This document shows positions 13,816-26,668 of a DNA stretch of 53,080 nucleotides, in pieces. A model generated the notes under the pieces. It was not told the origin of the DNA. It saw only the letters and a list, made by a program, of their open reading frames with translations, and did no database searches. The stretch comes from Vulcanimicrobiota bacterium (lineage in GTDB: Bacteria > Vulcanimicrobiota > Vulcanimicrobiia > Vulcanimicrobiales > Vulcanimicrobiaceae). Each line of letters starts with the position of its first letter. Positions within the stretch are counted from its first letter, which is position 1. The DNA lies in the NCBI GenBank assembly GCA_034666305.1, contig JAXDMA010000321.1, forward strand, positions 1 to 53,080, read 5' to 3'. The position numbers and the translations under genes were made by a program.

Positions 13816-14901
13816 ATGACGGTTCCTGTTGTACCTGACGGCGCGCTCGGATTATACAGCGCCGTCGGCGACGCATTCGCCGGCCGGCGGCTGGGCTTCG
13901 GCGGACGCCGCGCGGCGCTCGCCGCTCGCTTCGCCGCGCACCGCCGCGGCGACGCGGCCACCGTCGCCGCCGTCTGGGTCGCCGGCGCGCTGGCGGAAAC
14001 CGGCCTCGTCGACGTGGTGCTGACGCCGGATGCCAGCCCGCACGCGCGGCTGTTCGCGCTCGCCGACGCACCGCTGCACGGGGCCCGCATCGTCGCCGCG
14101 CTCCCCGGCCTCCCACCAGCGTCCGCCGACATCGTGCGCTGGCACCGCGAGCACGACGACGGCACGGGCATCCCCGACCGGCTGCGCTGGGACGGCATCC
14201 CGGTCGAGGCCGCGGCCTTGGGGATCGTCCACGGCTTCCTCGAGGCGATCGAAGACTCCGAGGAACCCCGCGGTCCCGACGAGGCACTGTTCACGATCGT
14301 CGCCGAAAGCGGCCGCCGCTATCGCATCGACCTCATACGAACGTTCCGCGAGTTCGTCATGGCCAACGCCGACAGCTGGGACGAGCCGCTCGACATCGCC
14401 GTCCCGGAAACCGCCGAAGAGCCAGCCCTGGCGGCGTTAGCGGCGCGCATCGACGCCCGCGACCCGCGCAATCCCGGTCGCAGCGAGCGGCTCGCGAAGC
14501 TCGCCGGCACGCTCGCGGGCCGGCTCGACCTCGACCCGAGCCGCGCCGGCCGGCTCGCCCGGCTGCTCGCGCTCGGCCGCGCCGCGGACGCGATCGACCA
14601 CGACGACTTCGACCCGCTCTCACGCCTGGCGCGCGACCGCCGGGACGCCGTCGCGCGCCGGGCCTCGACGATCGCCGCTTCGGTATCGCACTATGCCGCC
14701 GACGCGCCCTATCTCGCGGCGTCCGCCGCGTGGTTCGAGGAAGGCGACTCGAACCGGCTCGCCGCCGTGCTCGGCCTCGCGCTGGCGGTCGACGCGCTTC
14801 CGGCGACCGATGTCGCGCGACGTCTGGGCGCCGCGGCGGGCACGCAGTTCGATCCCGAGGTGACGCGCGTGTACCTCGCGACGCTAGGCGCGCCGACATG
14901 A
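13816..14901 (+). CDS. Tandem degenerate HD-GYP-like protein
   Basis: WHREHDDGTGIPDRL..DGIP, RIDARDPRNPGRSERLA and AAGTQFDPEV match the HD-GYP scaffold; both HD positions are replaced (LAETG, LLALGR). Confidence 0.72.
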   Translation: MTVPVVPDGALGLYSAVGDAFAGRRLGFGGRRAALAARFAAHRRGDAATVAAVWVAGALAETGLVDVVLTPDASPHARLFALADAPLHGARIVAALPGLPPASADIVRWHREHDDGTGIPDRLRWDGIPVEAAALGIVHGFLEAIEDSEEPRGPDEALFTIVAESGRRYRIDLIRTFREFVMANADSWDEPLDIAVPETAEEPALAALAARIDARDPRNPGRSERLAKLAGTLAGRLDLDPSRAGRLARLLALGRAADAIDHDDFDPLSRLARDRRDAVARRASTIAASVSHYAADAPYLAASAAWFEEGDSNRLAAVLGLALAVDALPATDVARRLGAAAGTQFDPEVTRVYLATLGAPT

Positions 14902-15812
14902 TCGAGCTGCCGGCGCGCACGCGCCGCGTCTCGGGGACGCGGTTGCTCGATCTCTGTCGCGAACGCGACATCGGGAGCCTCGTCGATCCGTTCATGGGGT
15001 TGCCGACGCATCTCAACGTGCTCAAGCGTCATGGCATCGCCGTGCATGGCGGTGACTTGCTCGAGTGGTTCGTGCGCGCCGGCGAAGGCCTGGTCGTCAA
15101 CGACTTCACGATCCTGCGCGAGAACGAAGTCGCCGAAGTCGTCGAGATGCTGCCCGGGCGGATCTATCCGACCGATCTCTTCCGGGCTTGGGAAGGCGTG
15201 TTCTTCAGCGAGGAACAGTGCCGCTATCTCGGCGTGTGGCATGCGAACGTGCATGCGCTGCGGAGCGACGGGCAAACCGGGCTCGCGGTGCTCGGGCTTT
15301 GGCACGTGCTGTGCCACTGGCTGCTCAAAGCGCGGCATCCGGACGAGATGGTGGACGTTGCGCCCAGCGAGCTCGCGTGGACGTACATTCGCGAAACCGA
15401 ACGCTGGGTGGCCGATAACGGCAAGCGCAACACGGTGCGGCGCGGTGACTTCGCGACGACGCTCGCCAACGCAAAAGCTGACGCGGTGTACTTGGCGCCG
15501 CCTGGGCGCAGTGGCGCAAAACGCATCGACGCGCGCGTGTGGATGTGGGAAGCGTGGTGGCAGGGAGATCCGTATCTCAACGTCGAGCGGCTGTATCGCG
15601 ATACCGTCTTCGGGAGCGGTGCGAACGACGATGCAAGCTACGACCGCGCGATCGACGATGTGCTTACCGCTTCGGGTGCCGCGCGGTGTGTGATCGTGCA
15701 GTCGAATGTGCGGGAGGCGGCTCGATTTGAGCGGCTCGTTCGCGCGCATCGGCCGAATGTCGAGATCGTCAGTCCGAACGATGACGAGCTCTATGTGATC
15801 GGGCGTCTGTAA
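14898..15812 (+). CDS. Degenerate D12-class N6-adenine DNA methyltransferase-like protein
   Basis: Motif I-like LVDPFMGLP; motif IV-like ADAVYLAPPG (DPPY expected); ATGA overlap with the upstream gene. Confidence 0.65.
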   Translation: MIELPARTRRVSGTRLLDLCRERDIGSLVDPFMGLPTHLNVLKRHGIAVHGGDLLEWFVRAGEGLVVNDFTILRENEVAEVVEMLPGRIYPTDLFRAWEGVFFSEEQCRYLGVWHANVHALRSDGQTGLAVLGLWHVLCHWLLKARHPDEMVDVAPSELAWTYIRETERWVADNGKRNTVRRGDFATTLANAKADAVYLAPPGRSGAKRIDARVWMWEAWWQGDPYLNVERLYRDTVFGSGANDDASYDRAIDDVLTASGAARCVIVQSNVREAARFERLVRAHRPNVEIVSPNDDELYVIGRL

Positions 15813-21747: not shown

Positions 21748-22116
21748 TTATTGCCGACCTGAGAGGTCGGGACGAAGCCCCGTGGCTCCTTCGAGATAGA
21801 CGTGCTGGATCTCGTCGGGGCGCCGCTCCGTGTTGATGTGGATGAGGATCCGGATGCAGCGCTCTAAGCGTCCGGGTACCCCGATTTCCGTGAAATTCAA
21901 CAGCGGCACGAGCGTCCAGCCCATGCGGCGCGCCGCCGCGGCCGGAAACTCCGAGACGAGGTCGGGAGTGACGGTAAACAAAGCCGACGCGACGTCGTCG
22001 GGGACGAACCCGTTGCGCTCCACGATCTCACGGAGCAGGCGTTCGGTCGCATCGAGGATCAGTACCGGCTCATCGCGCGCGACCGTCGTGGCGCCGCGAA
22101 TGCCCCGCACGATCAC
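21748..22116 (-). CDS. aroH: AroH-class chorismate mutase
   Basis: VRGIRGATT, FTVTPDL..EFPA.AAR, CIRIL, HVYLEGA..LRPD. Confidence 0.95.
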   Translation of the reverse strand: MIVRGIRGATTVARDEPVLILDATERLLREIVERNGFVPDDVASALFTVTPDLVSEFPAAAARRMGWTLVPLLNFTEIGVPGRLERCIRILIHINTERRPDEIQHVYLEGATGLRPDLSGRQ

Positions 22117-22877
22117 CGGTGGTTCGCCTCGCGGTCCGGAGCGGCCGCGGCCGCGTTTGCTTCTGCGACGATGCGACGCAGCGCCGTGAGCTCGCGATCC
22201 GTTGCGGCGCGCACCGCGCCCGGCGCCAGCTCGCCCAGCGAGATCGGCCCGAACCGCAACCGGACTAACGCGACGACGGGATGCTCGACGACCTCGAACA
22301 TCCGGCGCACTTGCCGGTTGCGGCCTTCGTGCAGCGTGATGTCGACGAGCGAAACGTCGCGCCGCACCGCGACGATGCGAAGCTGTGCCGGTGCGGCGCG
22401 GCCTTCCTCGAGCCGCACGCCCCGCAGAATCTTCTCCACCGCGGCGGATTCGAGCCGCCCGCGTAGCGTGGCGCGGTACGTCTTCTCGACGCCGAAGCGC
22501 GGATGCGTCAGGACGTTTGCCGTGTCGCCGTCATCAGTGAGCAGCAGCACGCCGCTCGTGTCGTAGTCGAGCCGGCCCACCGGCACGACGCGCGCGGTGA
22601 TGCCGGCGCGCCGCACGACGTCGGCGACGGTGCGGCGGCCTTCGGGATCGCGCATCGTCGTCATCACGCCGACCGGTTTGTGCAGAACGACATACGAGCG
22701 CGTCGCCGCCGGGCGGACGATGCGCCCGTCGACTTCGACGCGCGCGTCGTCGTCGACGCTCGTTCCGAGCTCGCGCACGATGCGACCCGCGACGCGCACG
22801 CGGCCGGCAACGATCAGTTCCTCCGCGCGACGGCGCGACGCGACACCGGCCGCCGCGAGGAATTTCTGAAGGCGCAG
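22113..22877 (-). CDS. rluB: rRNA pseudouridine synthase (RluB/RsuA family)
   Basis: S4 domain LRLQKFLAAAGVASRRRAEELI lies upstream of the ORF-track start; VGRLDYDTSG, EGRNRQVRRM. Start inferred at CTG 22877 or ATC 22880. Confidence 0.9.
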   Translation of the reverse strand: MRLQKFLAAAGVASRRRAEELIVAGRVRVAGRIVRELGTSVDDDARVEVDGRIVRPAATRSYVVLHKPVGVMTTMRDPEGRRTVADVVRRAGITARVVPVGRLDYDTSGVLLLTDDGDTANVLTHPRFGVEKTYRATLRGRLESAAVEKILRGVRLEEGRAAPAQLRIVAVRRDVSLVDITLHEGRNRQVRRMFEVVEHPVVALVRLRFGPISLGELAPGAVRAATDRELTALRRIVAEANAAAAAPDREANHR

Positions 22878-22890
22878 GATCTGAGCGGCC

Positions 22891-24288
22891 CTAGACTTTT
22901 TTGAGGTCGAACGCGGTCACGAACTCGTCGTTCGTCTTCGTTCGCGCGAGCGCCGCGTAGATGCGGTGCGACGCTTCGACGGGCGCGACGCCCGCAAGCG
23001 CACGGCGCAGATCGCCGACCTTGCGGAGCGCGATCTCGCTGAGCAGCTGTTCTTCGTAGAAGTTACCGCTGCGAACGAGATCGACCGGCGGGTAGGCGCG
23101 GGCCTCGGCGAGCTCGCGTCCGAGCACGACCTCCGCGTTCGACAACGGCGAGAACTCTTCGAGAACGAGCGTGTCGAGCGCCGACGCATCGGCTCCGACG
23201 GTCGCCAGCACGGTGAGCGATCCGCCGCCTTCGGCCGCACGCGCGGCGCCGAACAAGCGCTTCGGCCGCTGCATCAGCGCGGCATCCATCAGCGCGGCGT
23301 TTCCTTTGTGATGCGAGATCGCGGCGTACGCGCGCACGAGCCGCGTCATTGACGACACGAGCACGACCGCGTCCTGTCCCAGTTCGGCGAGCCGCTTCGC
23401 GCGTTCGAACACGAGCTCCGCGGTGGTGACGTGGTTGTCGGGATGCTCCTCGAACGTCGTCGCCACGACTTCGACGTCCAGCGCGCGCTGCAAGTGCGTG
23501 ACGGCTTCGGGACGCTCGTCGACCAGCAGCACGATCACGTGCGCGTCGGGATGGTTCGCTTCGATCGCGCCCGCGATGCGCACGAGCAGCGCGCCGTCGT
23601 CGGTGCGCGGCGGTGCGAGCAGCAGCGCGCGTTGTCCCTTGCCGAGCGGCGCGAACAGATCGAGCGCGCGCGTCGTCAGGTCGCCGCGCATCTCGAGCAC
23701 GAAGCGCTCCGCCGGCGGATCGGCACCCAGCTCTTCGAAGATTCGGCGGTTGGAAAGCATCTCGGGCGGATGGCCGTTGACCGTCTCGACCTTGACGATG
23801 CCGTAGTACTTCTCGTTTTCTTTGGGTTTGCGCACCTGGCCGGCGACGAGGTCGCCGCGGCGCAGTTCGAAGCGCCGGATCTGCGACTGTGAGATGTAGA
23901 TGTCGTCGGCGCCCACGAGGTAGCCCTCGCGCCGCAAGAAGCCGTAGCCCTCGGGCAAGACGTCCAGAACGCCGTTGGCCTTCTCAAGGCCGCTGCGCTG
24001 CGCTTGGATCTCGACGATCTGCGCGACGAGATCGTCCTTCTTGACCTTCGTCGGCAGCTCGATCTCGAAGGTCTTCGCGAGCTCGTTGAGCTCCGCTTTG
24101 CTCATCTCGGTGAGCTGCTCGGCGGACAGGAGCGGCGGCCCGACGGGCTGCGGAAACTCCGGCTGGGTGAAGACGTCGTGCTGTTGCGGCACGCCGTTCT
24201 CGTTGAAGCGCTGGCGGTTGCGCCGCGAGCGGCGGCGGCGGCCGCCTTCCGGCTTACCGCTGTGCTGGGGTCGGTTATCGAACTGCAG
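22891..24288 (-). CDS. rho: Rho termination factor homologue with degenerate ATPase motifs
   Basis: Rho N-domain, GYGFLR, DIYISQSQIRRFELR.GD, GKGQR, DERPE, KRLFGAAR, TKTNDEF. Start either CTG 24288 (GGAG 7 nt upstream) or TTG 24369. Confidence 0.9.
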   Translation of the reverse strand: MQFDNRPQHSGKPEGGRRRRSRRNRQRFNENGVPQQHDVFTQPEFPQPVGPPLLSAEQLTEMSKAELNELAKTFEIELPTKVKKDDLVAQIVEIQAQRSGLEKANGVLDVLPEGYGFLRREGYLVGADDIYISQSQIRRFELRRGDLVAGQVRKPKENEKYYGIVKVETVNGHPPEMLSNRRIFEELGADPPAERFVLEMRGDLTTRALDLFAPLGKGQRALLLAPPRTDDGALLVRIAGAIEANHPDAHVIVLLVDERPEAVTHLQRALDVEVVATTFEEHPDNHVTTAELVFERAKRLAELGQDAVVLVSSMTRLVRAYAAISHHKGNAALMDAALMQRPKRLFGAARAAEGGGSLTVLATVGADASALDTLVLEEFSPLSNAEVVLGRELAEARAYPPVDLVRSGNFYEEQLLSEIALRKVGDLRRALAGVAPVEASHRIYAALARTKTNDEFVTAFDLKKV

Positions 24289-24417
24289 CGAACTGCTCCC
24301 TCGGGGAGACGGGCGATCCGCGCGACGGGGCCGGACCGGCGAGGCTGCCGGGGCCGCTCGTCGGCGCAACGCCGAGGAACGAGAATTGCGCGCGGATCAG
24401 ACTGCGCGACGCAACGG

Positions 24418-24446
24418 AGTCTATCACAGCGGCGTCACGGCGACAA
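24418..24446 (-). promoter_or_regulatory. Putative sigma70-type promoter of the rho-like gene
   Basis: Minus strand TTGTCG-N17-TAGACT with an extended -10 TG. Confidence 0.55.
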
Positions 24447-25115
24447 GGCGCGCGGTCCGCTGACGCTCGGATTCCCGCGCGCGTAGAAGCGCAGCGGCTC
24501 GCCGGCGGCCTTGGTGATCCCGATCCGGGGGCTCACGCCCACCGGCAGGGCTACGCCGTCGTCCGCGAGCCGGAGCTCGGTACCCGCCGTCAGATCAGCG
24601 CCGTCGAACTCCGGGCCGATCGCGAACGCTTTGCAGAGATTGCCGGGGCCGCGCGCGAGGTCGCGATCTTTGACGTCCGGCCGCCCGCGCAGCGCGCGCA
24701 TCGTGGCTAAGCCGGCGACGGGCTCGCACGCGCGCACGAGCGACGCCGCGCCGACGCCTTCGCCTTCGCTGGTCACGTTGAGGCACCAGTTGACGCCATA
24801 GATGAAGTAGACGTAGGCGTGCAGCGGCGGGCCGAACATCGCGCGGTTGCGCCGCGTCGGCCCGCGAAACGCGTGCGACGCGGGATCGTGCGGGAAGTAG
24901 GCCTCGGTCTCGACGATGCGTCCGATCAGCGTCTCGCCGTCGACGACGCGCACCAGGAGCTTGCCGATCAGCGCGCGCGACAGCGCGATCGTGTCATGCG
25001 GCAGATCGGCGGCGCTCAGTCCTTCGACGAGCTCGGAATGAGGCGGTTCATGCGGCGGCCGGGGTGCGGAGGGCGATCTCCGCGCGGGCGCGCGTTTCGA
25101 GGTCGTGGGTTTCAA
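24435..25115 (-). CDS. mpg: DNA-3-methyladenine glycosylase (Mpg/AAG family)
   Basis: GRIVETEAY..DPASHA, AYVYFIYG..WCLN, LARGPGNLC, RIGI, RF; start uncertain. Confidence 0.93.
   Translation of the reverse strand: MKPTTSKRAPARRSPSAPRPPHEPPHSELVEGLSAADLPHDTIALSRALIGKLLVRVVDGETLIGRIVETEAYFPHDPASHAFRGPTRRNRAMFGPPLHAYVYFIYGVNWCLNVTSEGEGVGAASLVRACEPVAGLATMRALRGRPDVKDRDLARGPGNLCKAFAIGPEFDGADLTAGTELRLADDGVALPVGVSPRIGITKAAGEPLRFYARGNPSVSGPRALSP
25021..25043. repeat. Short REP-like palindromic unit
   Basis: CCTTCGACGAGCTCGGAATGAGG; a similar unit lies in opposite orientation at 37149-37173. Confidence 0.4.
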
Positions 25116-25488
25116 TCGGTTCGCCGCGTTCGACGCGCGCCGCCGCGAAGCCGTGCAGGACGCAGCGCGTCTTGACGTAGGCCATCGCGAGCGCGGGCGG
25201 GACGGGGCGGCGCGCGTTGAGGTCGTCCACGACGGCCTCGGCGGCCAGGCGCATCCGCACGCGTGTGAAGCCGTGACCGCGCAGGTAGCCGCCGGCGGCC
25301 GCGACCGCCGCGTAGCCGAACTCGCGGCCGTCGAGCGCCGCGAGCGGCGCGGCGCTGAACGGGACCTTGGCGACGGTGCGGCCGCTGCCCGTCGCGATCG
25401 CGAGATAGGCGATCCCGTTGCCGGTGCGGTCGGCCGAGTAGCCGACGGCGACGTCGGCGGAGCGGTGGCGTGTGGCGGTCTGTTGCAT
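25048..25488 (-). CDS. Hypothetical protein with RNase H-like pattern, catalytic residues absent
   Basis: REFGYAAVAAA..YLRGHGFTRVRMRLAAEAVVDDL resembles RNase HI NxAEYxA..G..RxxIxGDSxLVV; directly downstream of the SOS promoter. Confidence 0.6.
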   Translation of the reverse strand: MQQTATRHRSADVAVGYSADRTGNGIAYLAIATGSGRTVAKVPFSAAPLAALDGREFGYAAVAAAGGYLRGHGFTRVRMRLAAEAVVDDLNARRPVPPALAMAYVKTRCVLHGFAAARVERGEPIETHDLETRARAEIALRTPAAA

Positions 25489-25501
25489 GGCTCGTGCGAT
25501 C

Positions 25502-25530
25502 ATCCTATATCGAACATGTGTTCGAGTCAA
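25502..25530 (-). promoter_or_regulatory. Sigma70 promoter with LexA (SOS) operator in the spacer
   Basis: Minus strand TTGACT-N17-TAGGAT; palindrome TCGAAC-ATGT-GTTCGA at 25510-25525 matches the GAAC-N4-GTTC box. Confidence 0.85.
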
Positions 25531-25549
25531 GTCAACCGAAGTCGACCTG

Positions 25550-26668
25550 TCAAGCTGCGCGCGCGGCCAGCACCTCCTGGTAGAGCTCGAGGATTCGCCG
25601 CGTCTGCATCTCCACGGTAAACCGCGAGAATGCCAAATGTACGGCACTCTGATCGCGACCGGCAGCCAATGCGCTCCGAATCGCGTCGGCCAGCGCCTCG
25701 GGATCGGCGGCCACCAGCCGGCCCGCTCCCACCAGCACGTCGCGCGACGCCGCGCTGTCCGCGGCGATCACGGGCAGCCCGGCAGCAAGGGCTTCGGCCA
25801 GAACCAGCCCCTGCGTGTCGGTCGTCGACGGGAACACGAACGCGTCGACCGAGGCGTATACGTCGGGGAGCCGCTCGCGGGCGAGCGTGCCCGTGAAGCG
25901 CACCCGCGCCTCGACGCCCAGCCGCCGCGCGCGCTCCTCGAGCGCGGCGCGATGCGGACCCTCACCGACGATCGCGAGCCGCAGATCGGGTGTACGCGCG
26001 AGCGCATCGAGCGCGAGCTCGACGTTCTTTTCCATCGCAAGCCGCGACACGACGAGCGCGAGCGGCGCGTCGTCGTTCGCGCCGAGCCGGGCGCGCACGA
26101 GCGCACTGCGCCGCCCGCCGGCAAAGCGTTCGACGTCGATCGCGCTCGGCACCACGGAAATCGGCGCGCGCACGCCGAGCTCGCGCAAACGGATCTCCAT
26201 CGCGTGGGTCGGCACCACCACCGCGTCGGCCCAATTCGCGTAACGGCGCGTCAGCTCGGACATCGCGCGTTCGGTCGTAGCGCGGTCGAACGGCGCGTAG
26301 TGCGCGTACGCATCCAACCGCGTGTGGTAGGTGAACACGAGCGGAATGCGATGCCGCCGTGCGTACGACGCGCCCATCCAGCCGGTGACGAACGGCGAGT
26401 GCGCGTGCACGATGTCGAGTCCGCGCACGCGGCGCCGATCGACCGCATTCAAATATGGTAAGCACAAGCGATATGCGGTTTGCGTCGGCAGCGGCAGCGA
26501 CGGGATCCGCACGACGTCGCGTTCGTCGTCGATGAAGCGCGGAAAGTGCGGCGCGACGGTCGTCACCTCCACGCCGTGCGCGCACAAGCCGTCGCGCAGC
26601 GCGTCGATGCTTGCGACGACGCCGTTGACGATCGGTTTGTAGCACTCGGTGAAAAATCCGACCCGCAC
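25550..26668 (-). CDS. GT4 glycosyltransferase (MGS-like)
   Basis: FFTECYKPIVNGV, HAHSPF, TYHT, SRLAMEKN, FVFPSTTDTQGLVLAEA. Confidence 0.92.
   Translation of the reverse strand: MRVGFFTECYKPIVNGVVASIDALRDGLCAHGVEVTTVAPHFPRFIDDERDVVRIPSLPLPTQTAYRLCLPYLNAVDRRRVRGLDIVHAHSPFVTGWMGASYARRHRIPLVFTYHTRLDAYAHYAPFDRATTERAMSELTRRYANWADAVVVPTHAMEIRLRELGVRAPISVVPSAIDVERFAGGRRSALVRARLGANDDAPLALVVSRLAMEKNVELALDALARTPDLRLAIVGEGPHRAALEERARRLGVEARVRFTGTLARERLPDVYASVDAFVFPSTTDTQGLVLAEALAAGLPVIAADSAASRDVLVGAGRLVAADPEALADAIRSALAAGRDQSAVHLAFSRFTVEMQTRRILELYQEVLAARAA

Follow-up and report, generated by a model that had tools for sequence, protein, structure and literature searches.

What may a Rho protein still do once the residues that drive its motor have been replaced? 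The question is raised by a gene located on the reverse strand of a 53,080-nucleotide stretch of DNA from a Vulcanimicrobiota bacterium (contig JAXDMA010000321.1 of assembly GCA_034666305.1), referred to as the window. The initial annotation described a full-length rho homologue with an intact RNA-binding domain and altered ATPase and translocation motifs, and suggested that its product is a pseudo-ATPase kept by selection. Rho proteins predicted to have lost the motor are called motor-dead below.

Organization of the rho locus

The ORF spanning positions 22891-24369 (reverse strand) is translated without internal stops. Pfam domains are found in the order Rho_N, Rho_RNA_bind (1e-32) and ATP-synt_ab (RecA-like). 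The protein scores 432 bits against TIGR00767, less than the curated cut-off of 509, but passes the looser PRK09376 cut-off (315). Against NF041509 (paralog_Rho2) it reaches 322 bits, the cut-off being 628. Translation had been placed at TTG 24369. It likely begins at CTG 24288 (window 24286-24288, reverse strand), behind a GAGGGAG site, as the CTG and a purine-rich site before it are found in 32/32 genus orthologues and in most canonical family members. Residue numbers given here nevertheless follow the 492-aa ORF beginning at TTG 24369, not the 465-aa CTG form. The Arg-rich extension is present, as annotated, but is no oddity of this gene, since alignment with the canonical Rho of the family indicates that it is ancestral. 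Gene calls for rho in public records vary from about 400 to 550 aa. A search of the ESM Atlas returned ordinary Rho clusters only.

Table 1. Features of the rho locus (positions refer to the window)
Feature	Position	Strand	Remarks
rho orthologue, predicted ATPase-dead by sequence	22891..24288	-	465 aa from likely CTG start
Arg-rich N-terminal extension GRRRRSRRNR, probably disordered	24130..24288	-	common to the canonical Rho of the family
Rho N-terminal helical bundle PF07498	23989..24117	-	Pfam match
Rho RNA-binding OB domain PF07497	23761..23976	-	Pfam, alignment, dN/dS 0.08-0.09
Walker A APPRTDDG (canonical APPKAGKT), degenerate	23593..23616	-	chain alignment, homologue tally
DERPE, kept: catalytic Glu and Arg valve equivalents	23506..23520	-	alignment, homologue tally
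Walker B LVSSMTR (canonical LLDSITR)	23341..23361	-	alignment, homologue tally
Q-loop HHKGNAALM, remodelled, 2 residues shorter than canonical	23287..23313	-	alignment, tally
R-loop ASALD (canonical GSKMD), degenerate	23173..23187	-	alignment, tally
EFSPLSN (canonical EFKGTGN)	23137..23157	-	E334 kept, K336 lost
SGNFYE (canonical SGTRKE), Arg finger lost	23053..23070	-	orthologue and homologue tally
rho leader, about 120 bases, pyrimidine tract	24289..24411	-	conserved family-wide
Leader motif GGCAGCCTCGCC	24338-24349	-	conserved within rho leader
Predicted hairpin over ribosome-binding site	24296-24308	-	rho leader
Promoter-like TTGTCG-17-TAGACT, extended -10 TG	24418..24446	-	conserved; below scanner threshold
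mpg, methylpurine-DNA glycosylase	24435..25115	-	Pfam; upstream syntenic marker
RluB-like pseudouridine synthase (rluB)	22113..22877	-	Pfam; downstream marker
aroH chorismate mutase	21748..22116	-	Pfam; downstream marker

The order mpg-rho-rluB is shared with canonical rho genes across the class. The likely start of rluB is CTG 22877 (window 22875-22877, reverse strand), 13 bases past the rho stop; in rho-less relatives rluB starts with ATG or GTG. The gene had been credited with a promoter of its own. The candidate falls short of the scanner threshold, but the pattern TTGTC[GC]-~17-TGnTA[GA]ACT is visible upstream of the 32 genus orthologues. Two of five rho-less genomes retain a similar -10, which there would serve to transcribe rluB; the promoter by itself is thus no proof of a need for rho.

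The rho leader has no match in Rfam and a folding z of -1.1, and covariation in the ribosome-site hairpin amounts to one shared change. The leader motif accompanies the gene. It is absent from the mpg-rluB gap in 4/5 rho-less genomes and in genome G155, which has a decayed rho; the fifth rho-less genome, G131, has one match, inside an inserted gene. The U-rich stretch of canonical leaders has turned C/G-rich in the motor-dead genus. Leader-based autoregulation of rho is a guess.

Two proteins of the window without Pfam matches may be mentioned. One, of about 155 aa (25048-25647, reverse strand), is conserved and lies between a glycosyltransferase and mpg family-wide. The other is a 360-aa ORF (14730-15812, forward strand) containing DPFMG and DAVYLAPP, which presumably recall adenine methyltransferase motifs, the catalytic one being apparently altered.

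Motor motifs are lost and RNA-site residues are kept

Substitutions were read from alignment to the solved Rho chains 3l0o, 8q3q and 3ice, E. coli numbers being assigned via 3ice. Functional labels of motor residues derive from PMC11347177, PMC4499133 and PMC11829017. Conservation was tallied in 81 close database homologues, which overlap the genome set, and in a genus set of 32 full-length orthologues. Translation and alignment bear out every motif substitution listed in the initial annotation. E. coli K181, G183, K184 and T185 are replaced by R255, D257, D258 and G259, D265 by S339, K326 by A397, K336 by S407 and R366 by F437; Y426 stands at F355. According to PMC11829017, G183, K184, T185 and R366 are among the Rho residues that touch the phosphates of the nucleotide.

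No GK[TS] is found in the Walker A of the 81 homologues, and GKT is absent from all 32 genus orthologues, none of which has K at the K184 position; PPKAGKT is intact in all 42 full-length rows aligned from other genera. R takes the place of K181 in 81/81; at K184, 61 homologues have D, 9 have E and none has K. At the Walker B D265 position S is found in 69/81 and D in 5, R269 being retained in 81/81. Five residues, none of them K, cover the K326 position in all 81 homologues. The Arg finger R366 is missing in 32/32 orthologues, and homologues show W, F, A, V or M in its place. As the same losses recur in 32/32 orthologues and 81/81 homologues, they are neither a sequencing artefact nor due to chance.

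The retention of DERPE, KRLFGAAR and the C-terminal TKTNDEF, as well as the uninterrupted frame, had been correctly recognized. The catalytic Glu and Arg valve equivalents are each found in 80/81 homologues. The window's Rho retains the equivalents of E211, R212, R269 and E334 and still has an aromatic residue at 355, so some ligand binding is possible. Other positions are newly conserved. The HHK of the Q-loop is found in most of the 81 homologues (H 78, H 76, K 80), and N436 and Y438 are invariant in 81/81. Residues Y142, F144, R146, D156, Y158, E186, K187 and Y188, which we take to be the equivalents of the E. coli Rho primary site, are kept in 80-81 of the 81.

The loss of the P-loop lysine, the Arg finger and the Q and R loops predicts an ATPase-dead protein. 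Judged from these residues, the window's Rho very probably neither hydrolyses ATP nor translocates, and RNA binding at the primary site is probably retained.

Selection and predicted fold

Pairwise dN/dS values (NG86), rough on high-GC sequences, were compared between 32 genus sequences and 16 canonical Rho of the family. The latter include the unpublished G245 and G255, also used in alignments and Rho trees (G255 in the leader comparison as well); no conclusion rests on these. The OB domain has the same value, 0.088, in the motor-dead genus and in canonical Rho. The C-terminal (ATPase) domain rises to 0.29, about seven times the canonical 0.041. At 18 loci analysed with their flanks, dN/dS is 0.080 for the OB domain, 0.255 for the C-terminal domain and 0.10-0.30 for eight neighbour genes, the OB domain having the lowest value among the regions and genes measured. 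Selection on the ATPase domain is relaxed relative to canonical Rho, yet it is purifying and within the range of neighbour genes. Residues R255, A289, T304, H353, K355, L372, N436 and Y438 differ from canonical Rho and are fixed in 32/32 orthologues.

The view of a pseudo-ATPase kept by selection thus gains ground from the OB (0.08-0.09) and C-terminal (0.26-0.29) values and from the presence of the gene in 41/44 genus genomes. Neither sign of recent decay, GKT in close relatives (0/81) or dN/dS near 1, was seen. An AlphaFold2 model has a pLDDT of 90.8, and Foldseek returns Rho with a TM of 0.85. The input alignment contained canonical Rho and the match is partly built in, so the model tells of fold compatibility, no more.

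A single rho gene in the genus

Motor-dead rho is found in 41 of the 44 genomes of the Vulcanimicrobium/Ca. Elarobacter genus, the three lacking a match being 72-89% complete. All 15 near-complete genomes, one of which is a single contig and 99% complete, host exactly one copy. Two low-quality bins have a second, partial match of the same motor-dead kind. In the window's own assembly (75% complete) a second rho was not found, and only one Rho OB domain is present; two other weak matches to the rho search (22-27% identity) are probably FliI/F1-type ATPases. Having no second rho in near-complete genomes, the genus is without a canonical partner for this protein.

Proteins 78-94% identical to the window's Rho are titled Ca. 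Elarobacter sp., Vulcanimicrobiota or Eremiobacteraeota in the records. A named homologue, with P-loop APPRSNEA, is the Rho of Vulcanimicrobium alpinum (P0035, BDE07083.1; also WP_317994698.1), the species with which the phylum was first brought into culture (PMC10582173). The unpublished genomes G036, G189, G222, G240, G253 and G269 enter genome tallies only, and no conclusion rests on them.

Graded decay and deletion in the family

Among 251 genomes of the phylum, 229 have a rho match, 197 of them over the cut-off. Within the family 20/171 genomes have no rho match, and no OB-domain match was found in these 20. One (G263, 86% complete), from a genus with canonical rho, was not counted among the losses, since an assembly gap is the likely cause. 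The remaining 19 rho-less genomes, two of which are single contigs, belong to 13 Vulcanimicrobiaceae genera. In all five that were tested rho is missing from the slot between mpg and rluB. The two genes adjoin in four (L293, L295, L296 and L297, of genomes G170, G079, G224 and G181, respectively), which is a clean deletion, and are separated by an unrelated gene in the fifth.

The family features a series running from canonical Rho, through partly drifted, motor-dead and heavily decayed forms (the last in G155 and G226), to clean deletion. Some intermediates keep GKT and the finger and have drifting loops (G246; 13 homologues); in G148 the loops are lost and GKT is kept. A second motor-dead type (L076/G161 and 18 homologues; P0086-P0120) has lost the P-loop, which reads PPRVD, and the catalytic Glu, the corresponding motif being DGRPED, but keeps the Arg finger and the Walker B Asp.

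Canonical-rho genera form one clade in the species tree, and two clades and one lone genome fall outside it. Grouping the two outside clades as one is neither rejected nor established by the AU test (p 0.356). In Rho trees, built with FastTree and showing long branches, degenerate forms are all on one side, with support of 1.0 for the full length and 0.946 for the N-terminal half. These patterns are read most simply as one early relaxation, after which the lineages went separate ways.

Other low-scoring rho genes have different origins. Family f5 was considered as a second dead lineage because of low TIGR00767 scores and rejected, the catalytic motifs being intact. Its Rho (L080-L084) is a mirror image of the window's: the motor is intact, the OB domain has drifted and some 250-350 aa have been inserted. 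Low scores in G251, G248 and G257 reflect partial matches near contig ends, and in G218 a frameshift. The rho-less group of Vulcanimicrobiaceae is not listed in the table of Moreira et al. 2024, which covers RefSeq reference genomes only (PMC11347177).

Transcription termination without a Rho motor

Terminators and purine content were scanned by simple in-house rules, on rough gene calls and small samples. Sites consisting of a hairpin plus a U-tract near nusG number 108 in 420 kb of canonical, 33 in 197 kb of rho-less and 16 in 131 kb of motor-dead genomes. At rough unit ends U-tract terminators number 8/148, 5/144 and 6/287, respectively. Thus neither count, near nusG or at unit ends, rises where the motor is lost. 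U-tract intrinsic terminators seem rare family-wide, also in rho-less genomes, and are found at 2-5% of rough unit ends.

Purine bias was checked against the contrast offered by Bacilli, in which a shift is described (PMC13323073). The rpoC purine excess is 0.045-0.051 in rho-less, motor-dead and canonical members of the family, with no difference, and no genome-wide bias was found in any of the three groups. NusG shows no clear change, its KOW loops being unaltered; the A in 'IDFAKG' is found in nearly all non-canonical genomes, yet also in several canonical ones. No replacement for Rho emerged from terminator scans, purine bias or NusG. In the family the nusG-rplK-rplA-rplJ-rplL cluster is interrupted by other genes and unlinked to rpoBC (L174, G019:C1:1461000-1478000).

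Possible roles of the motor-dead Rho

In the mechanism we propose, this part of the family would have ceased to need Rho-dependent termination, and the motor residues would thereby have been freed. The acidic residue replacing K184 and the missing finger would block ATP binding and hydrolysis, and hence translocation. The intact primary site and the Arg-rich extension would retain their hold on single-stranded, pyrimidine-rich RNA, with the RecA-like domain persisting as a folded scaffold, probably still as a ring. The protein may then chaperone or regulate untranslated RNA, and a likely target is the conserved leader of its own gene. Considering sequence data as a whole, we deem it fairly likely that an ATPase-dead Rho is kept as an ATP-independent, non-terminating RNA-binding protein. 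A chaperone would be favoured over an ATP-independent terminator because catalytically dead Mycobacterium tuberculosis Rho does not terminate and sister genera live without rho. The M. tuberculosis E386A protein retains RNA binding and oligomerisation, with no unwinding or termination (PMC4499133). As sister genera deleted rho outright, the RNA-binding role is dispensable there.

The former ATP pocket or the pore may instead have been re-tooled to bind a nucleotide, an alarmone, phosphate or a metal, the ligand switching RNA binding or assembly. The residues proposed to contact the ligand (R255, E285, R286, R343, H292, H353-H354-K355, N436 and Y438) are nearly invariant in the 81 homologues, whereas the GKT positions vary, and the oligomeric state of E. 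coli Rho is reported to shift with ADP and (p)ppGpp (PMC11829017). A sensor of this kind is unlikely, however, given D or E at the K184 position in 70/81 homologues and the sister motor-dead type, in which Gly replaces E211 in 18/18 and HHK is missing.

ATP-independent termination or pausing, in which Rho would sit in an open 'stand-by' form on RNA polymerase and nascent RNA and induce allosteric release or slowing, is likewise rather doubtful. Open, catalytically inactive Rho has been seen on RNA polymerase by cryo-EM, though the same review also holds that stand-by complexes are possibly off-pathway (PMC12360218). The motor-dead Rho is the only Rho in genus genomes, NusG KOW loops are unaltered and U-tract terminators are rare at unit ends. 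Rho-less sisters have equally few, so that the scarcity needs no such protein, and catalytic-Glu mutants of M. tuberculosis Rho lose termination (PMC4499133). Since U-tracts do not rise with motor loss, a role in termination stays alive.

It is quite improbable that the gene is a relic slowly being lost, with nothing but weak selection against misfolding, or its position in the rho-rluB-aroH operon, to preserve it. Graded decay and deletion among relatives, the raised C-terminal dN/dS and the closeness of the likely rluB start agree with such a relic. Against it are the low dN/dS of the OB domain, the presence of rho in 15/15 near-complete genomes and the fixation of new residues across the genus, and the operon outlives clean rho deletion in four sister genomes.

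It was also suggested initially that the protein might join a canonical Rho ring as a non-catalytic subunit or might inhibit such a ring. In species that have two rho genes, mixed hexamers have indeed been put forward (PMC11347177). Here this role is highly improbable, as neither the own assembly nor the 15 near-complete genomes have a second rho and the gene occupies the ancestral rho slot.

Comparison with known Rho proteins

The closest system is canonical Rho (TIGR00767, PRK09376; PDB 1pv4, 3ice, 5jji, 3l0o), subtype 2a of Moreira et al. The window's Rho, 54-57% identical to the canonical Rho of the same family, shares with it the three domains, the initial basic extension, the primary site, DERPE, the predicted fold and the genomic slot, but has no GKT, Arg finger or K326/K336 equivalents; the Walker B Asp is mostly lost and the Q-loop remodelled. 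In functional Rho the ATPase domain is described as highly conserved, and as intact in second copies (Moreira et al., PMC11347177).

Rho-like proteins of Thermoleophilia and Rubrobacteria (Conexibacter woesei, Baekduia soli and relatives) are described as lacking the catalytic Glu and the Q and R loops. In this type another residue stands in place of Glu, and the Rho model does not pick up the ATPase domain (PMC11347177). The window's type, by contrast, has lost the P-loop and finger but retains Glu, and its ATPase domain is still detected. The two states, found in different phyla, likely arose independently. Group B/Type 4 second copies (paralog_Rho2, NF041509) are likewise divergent members of the Rho family; they are extra copies without the N-terminal domain and keep catalytic residues (PMC11347177), whereas the window's Rho is a sole copy that keeps the N-terminal domain and has lost catalytic residues.

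Loss of rho is common to the 13 sister genera and to Cyanobacteriota, Mycoplasmatota and part of Bacillota. Known Rho-less lineages are reported to rely on intrinsic terminators (PMC11347177), unlike this family, in which no rise of these was seen. The string 'Vulcanimicrob' is absent from the Moreira et al. 2024 supplement (PMC11347177). In the openly accessible literature on the Rho of this clade or on naturally dead Rho, only a note in that supplement was found. The Thermoleophilia proteins are a precedent. What is added here is a sole full-length copy with an unchanged OB domain, found also in a cultured host, and a series leading to clean deletion.

Because databases name motor-dead proteins 'transcription termination factor Rho', tallies of Rho-positive species that rely on domains are in error for this clade. 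Possible motor-free jobs of Rho, such as RNA chaperoning, condensate scaffolding and stand-by polymerase binding, have so far been explored by means of engineered mutants. In this genus the motor and RNA binding have come apart in the course of evolution, and canonical, half-decayed and rho-less relatives are natural controls. It is conceivable, though unlikely, that this branch of the family, running without a Rho motor and nearly without U-tract terminators, follows an undescribed termination route in which, in Vulcanimicrobium, the motor-dead Rho with the HHK loop takes part; within that same slender possibility, its part may be that of an ATP-independent terminator or of a ligand-switched RNA regulator. 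The clade seems to be without the intrinsic terminators of other Rho-less bacteria, and is a place to seek another way of terminating transcription.
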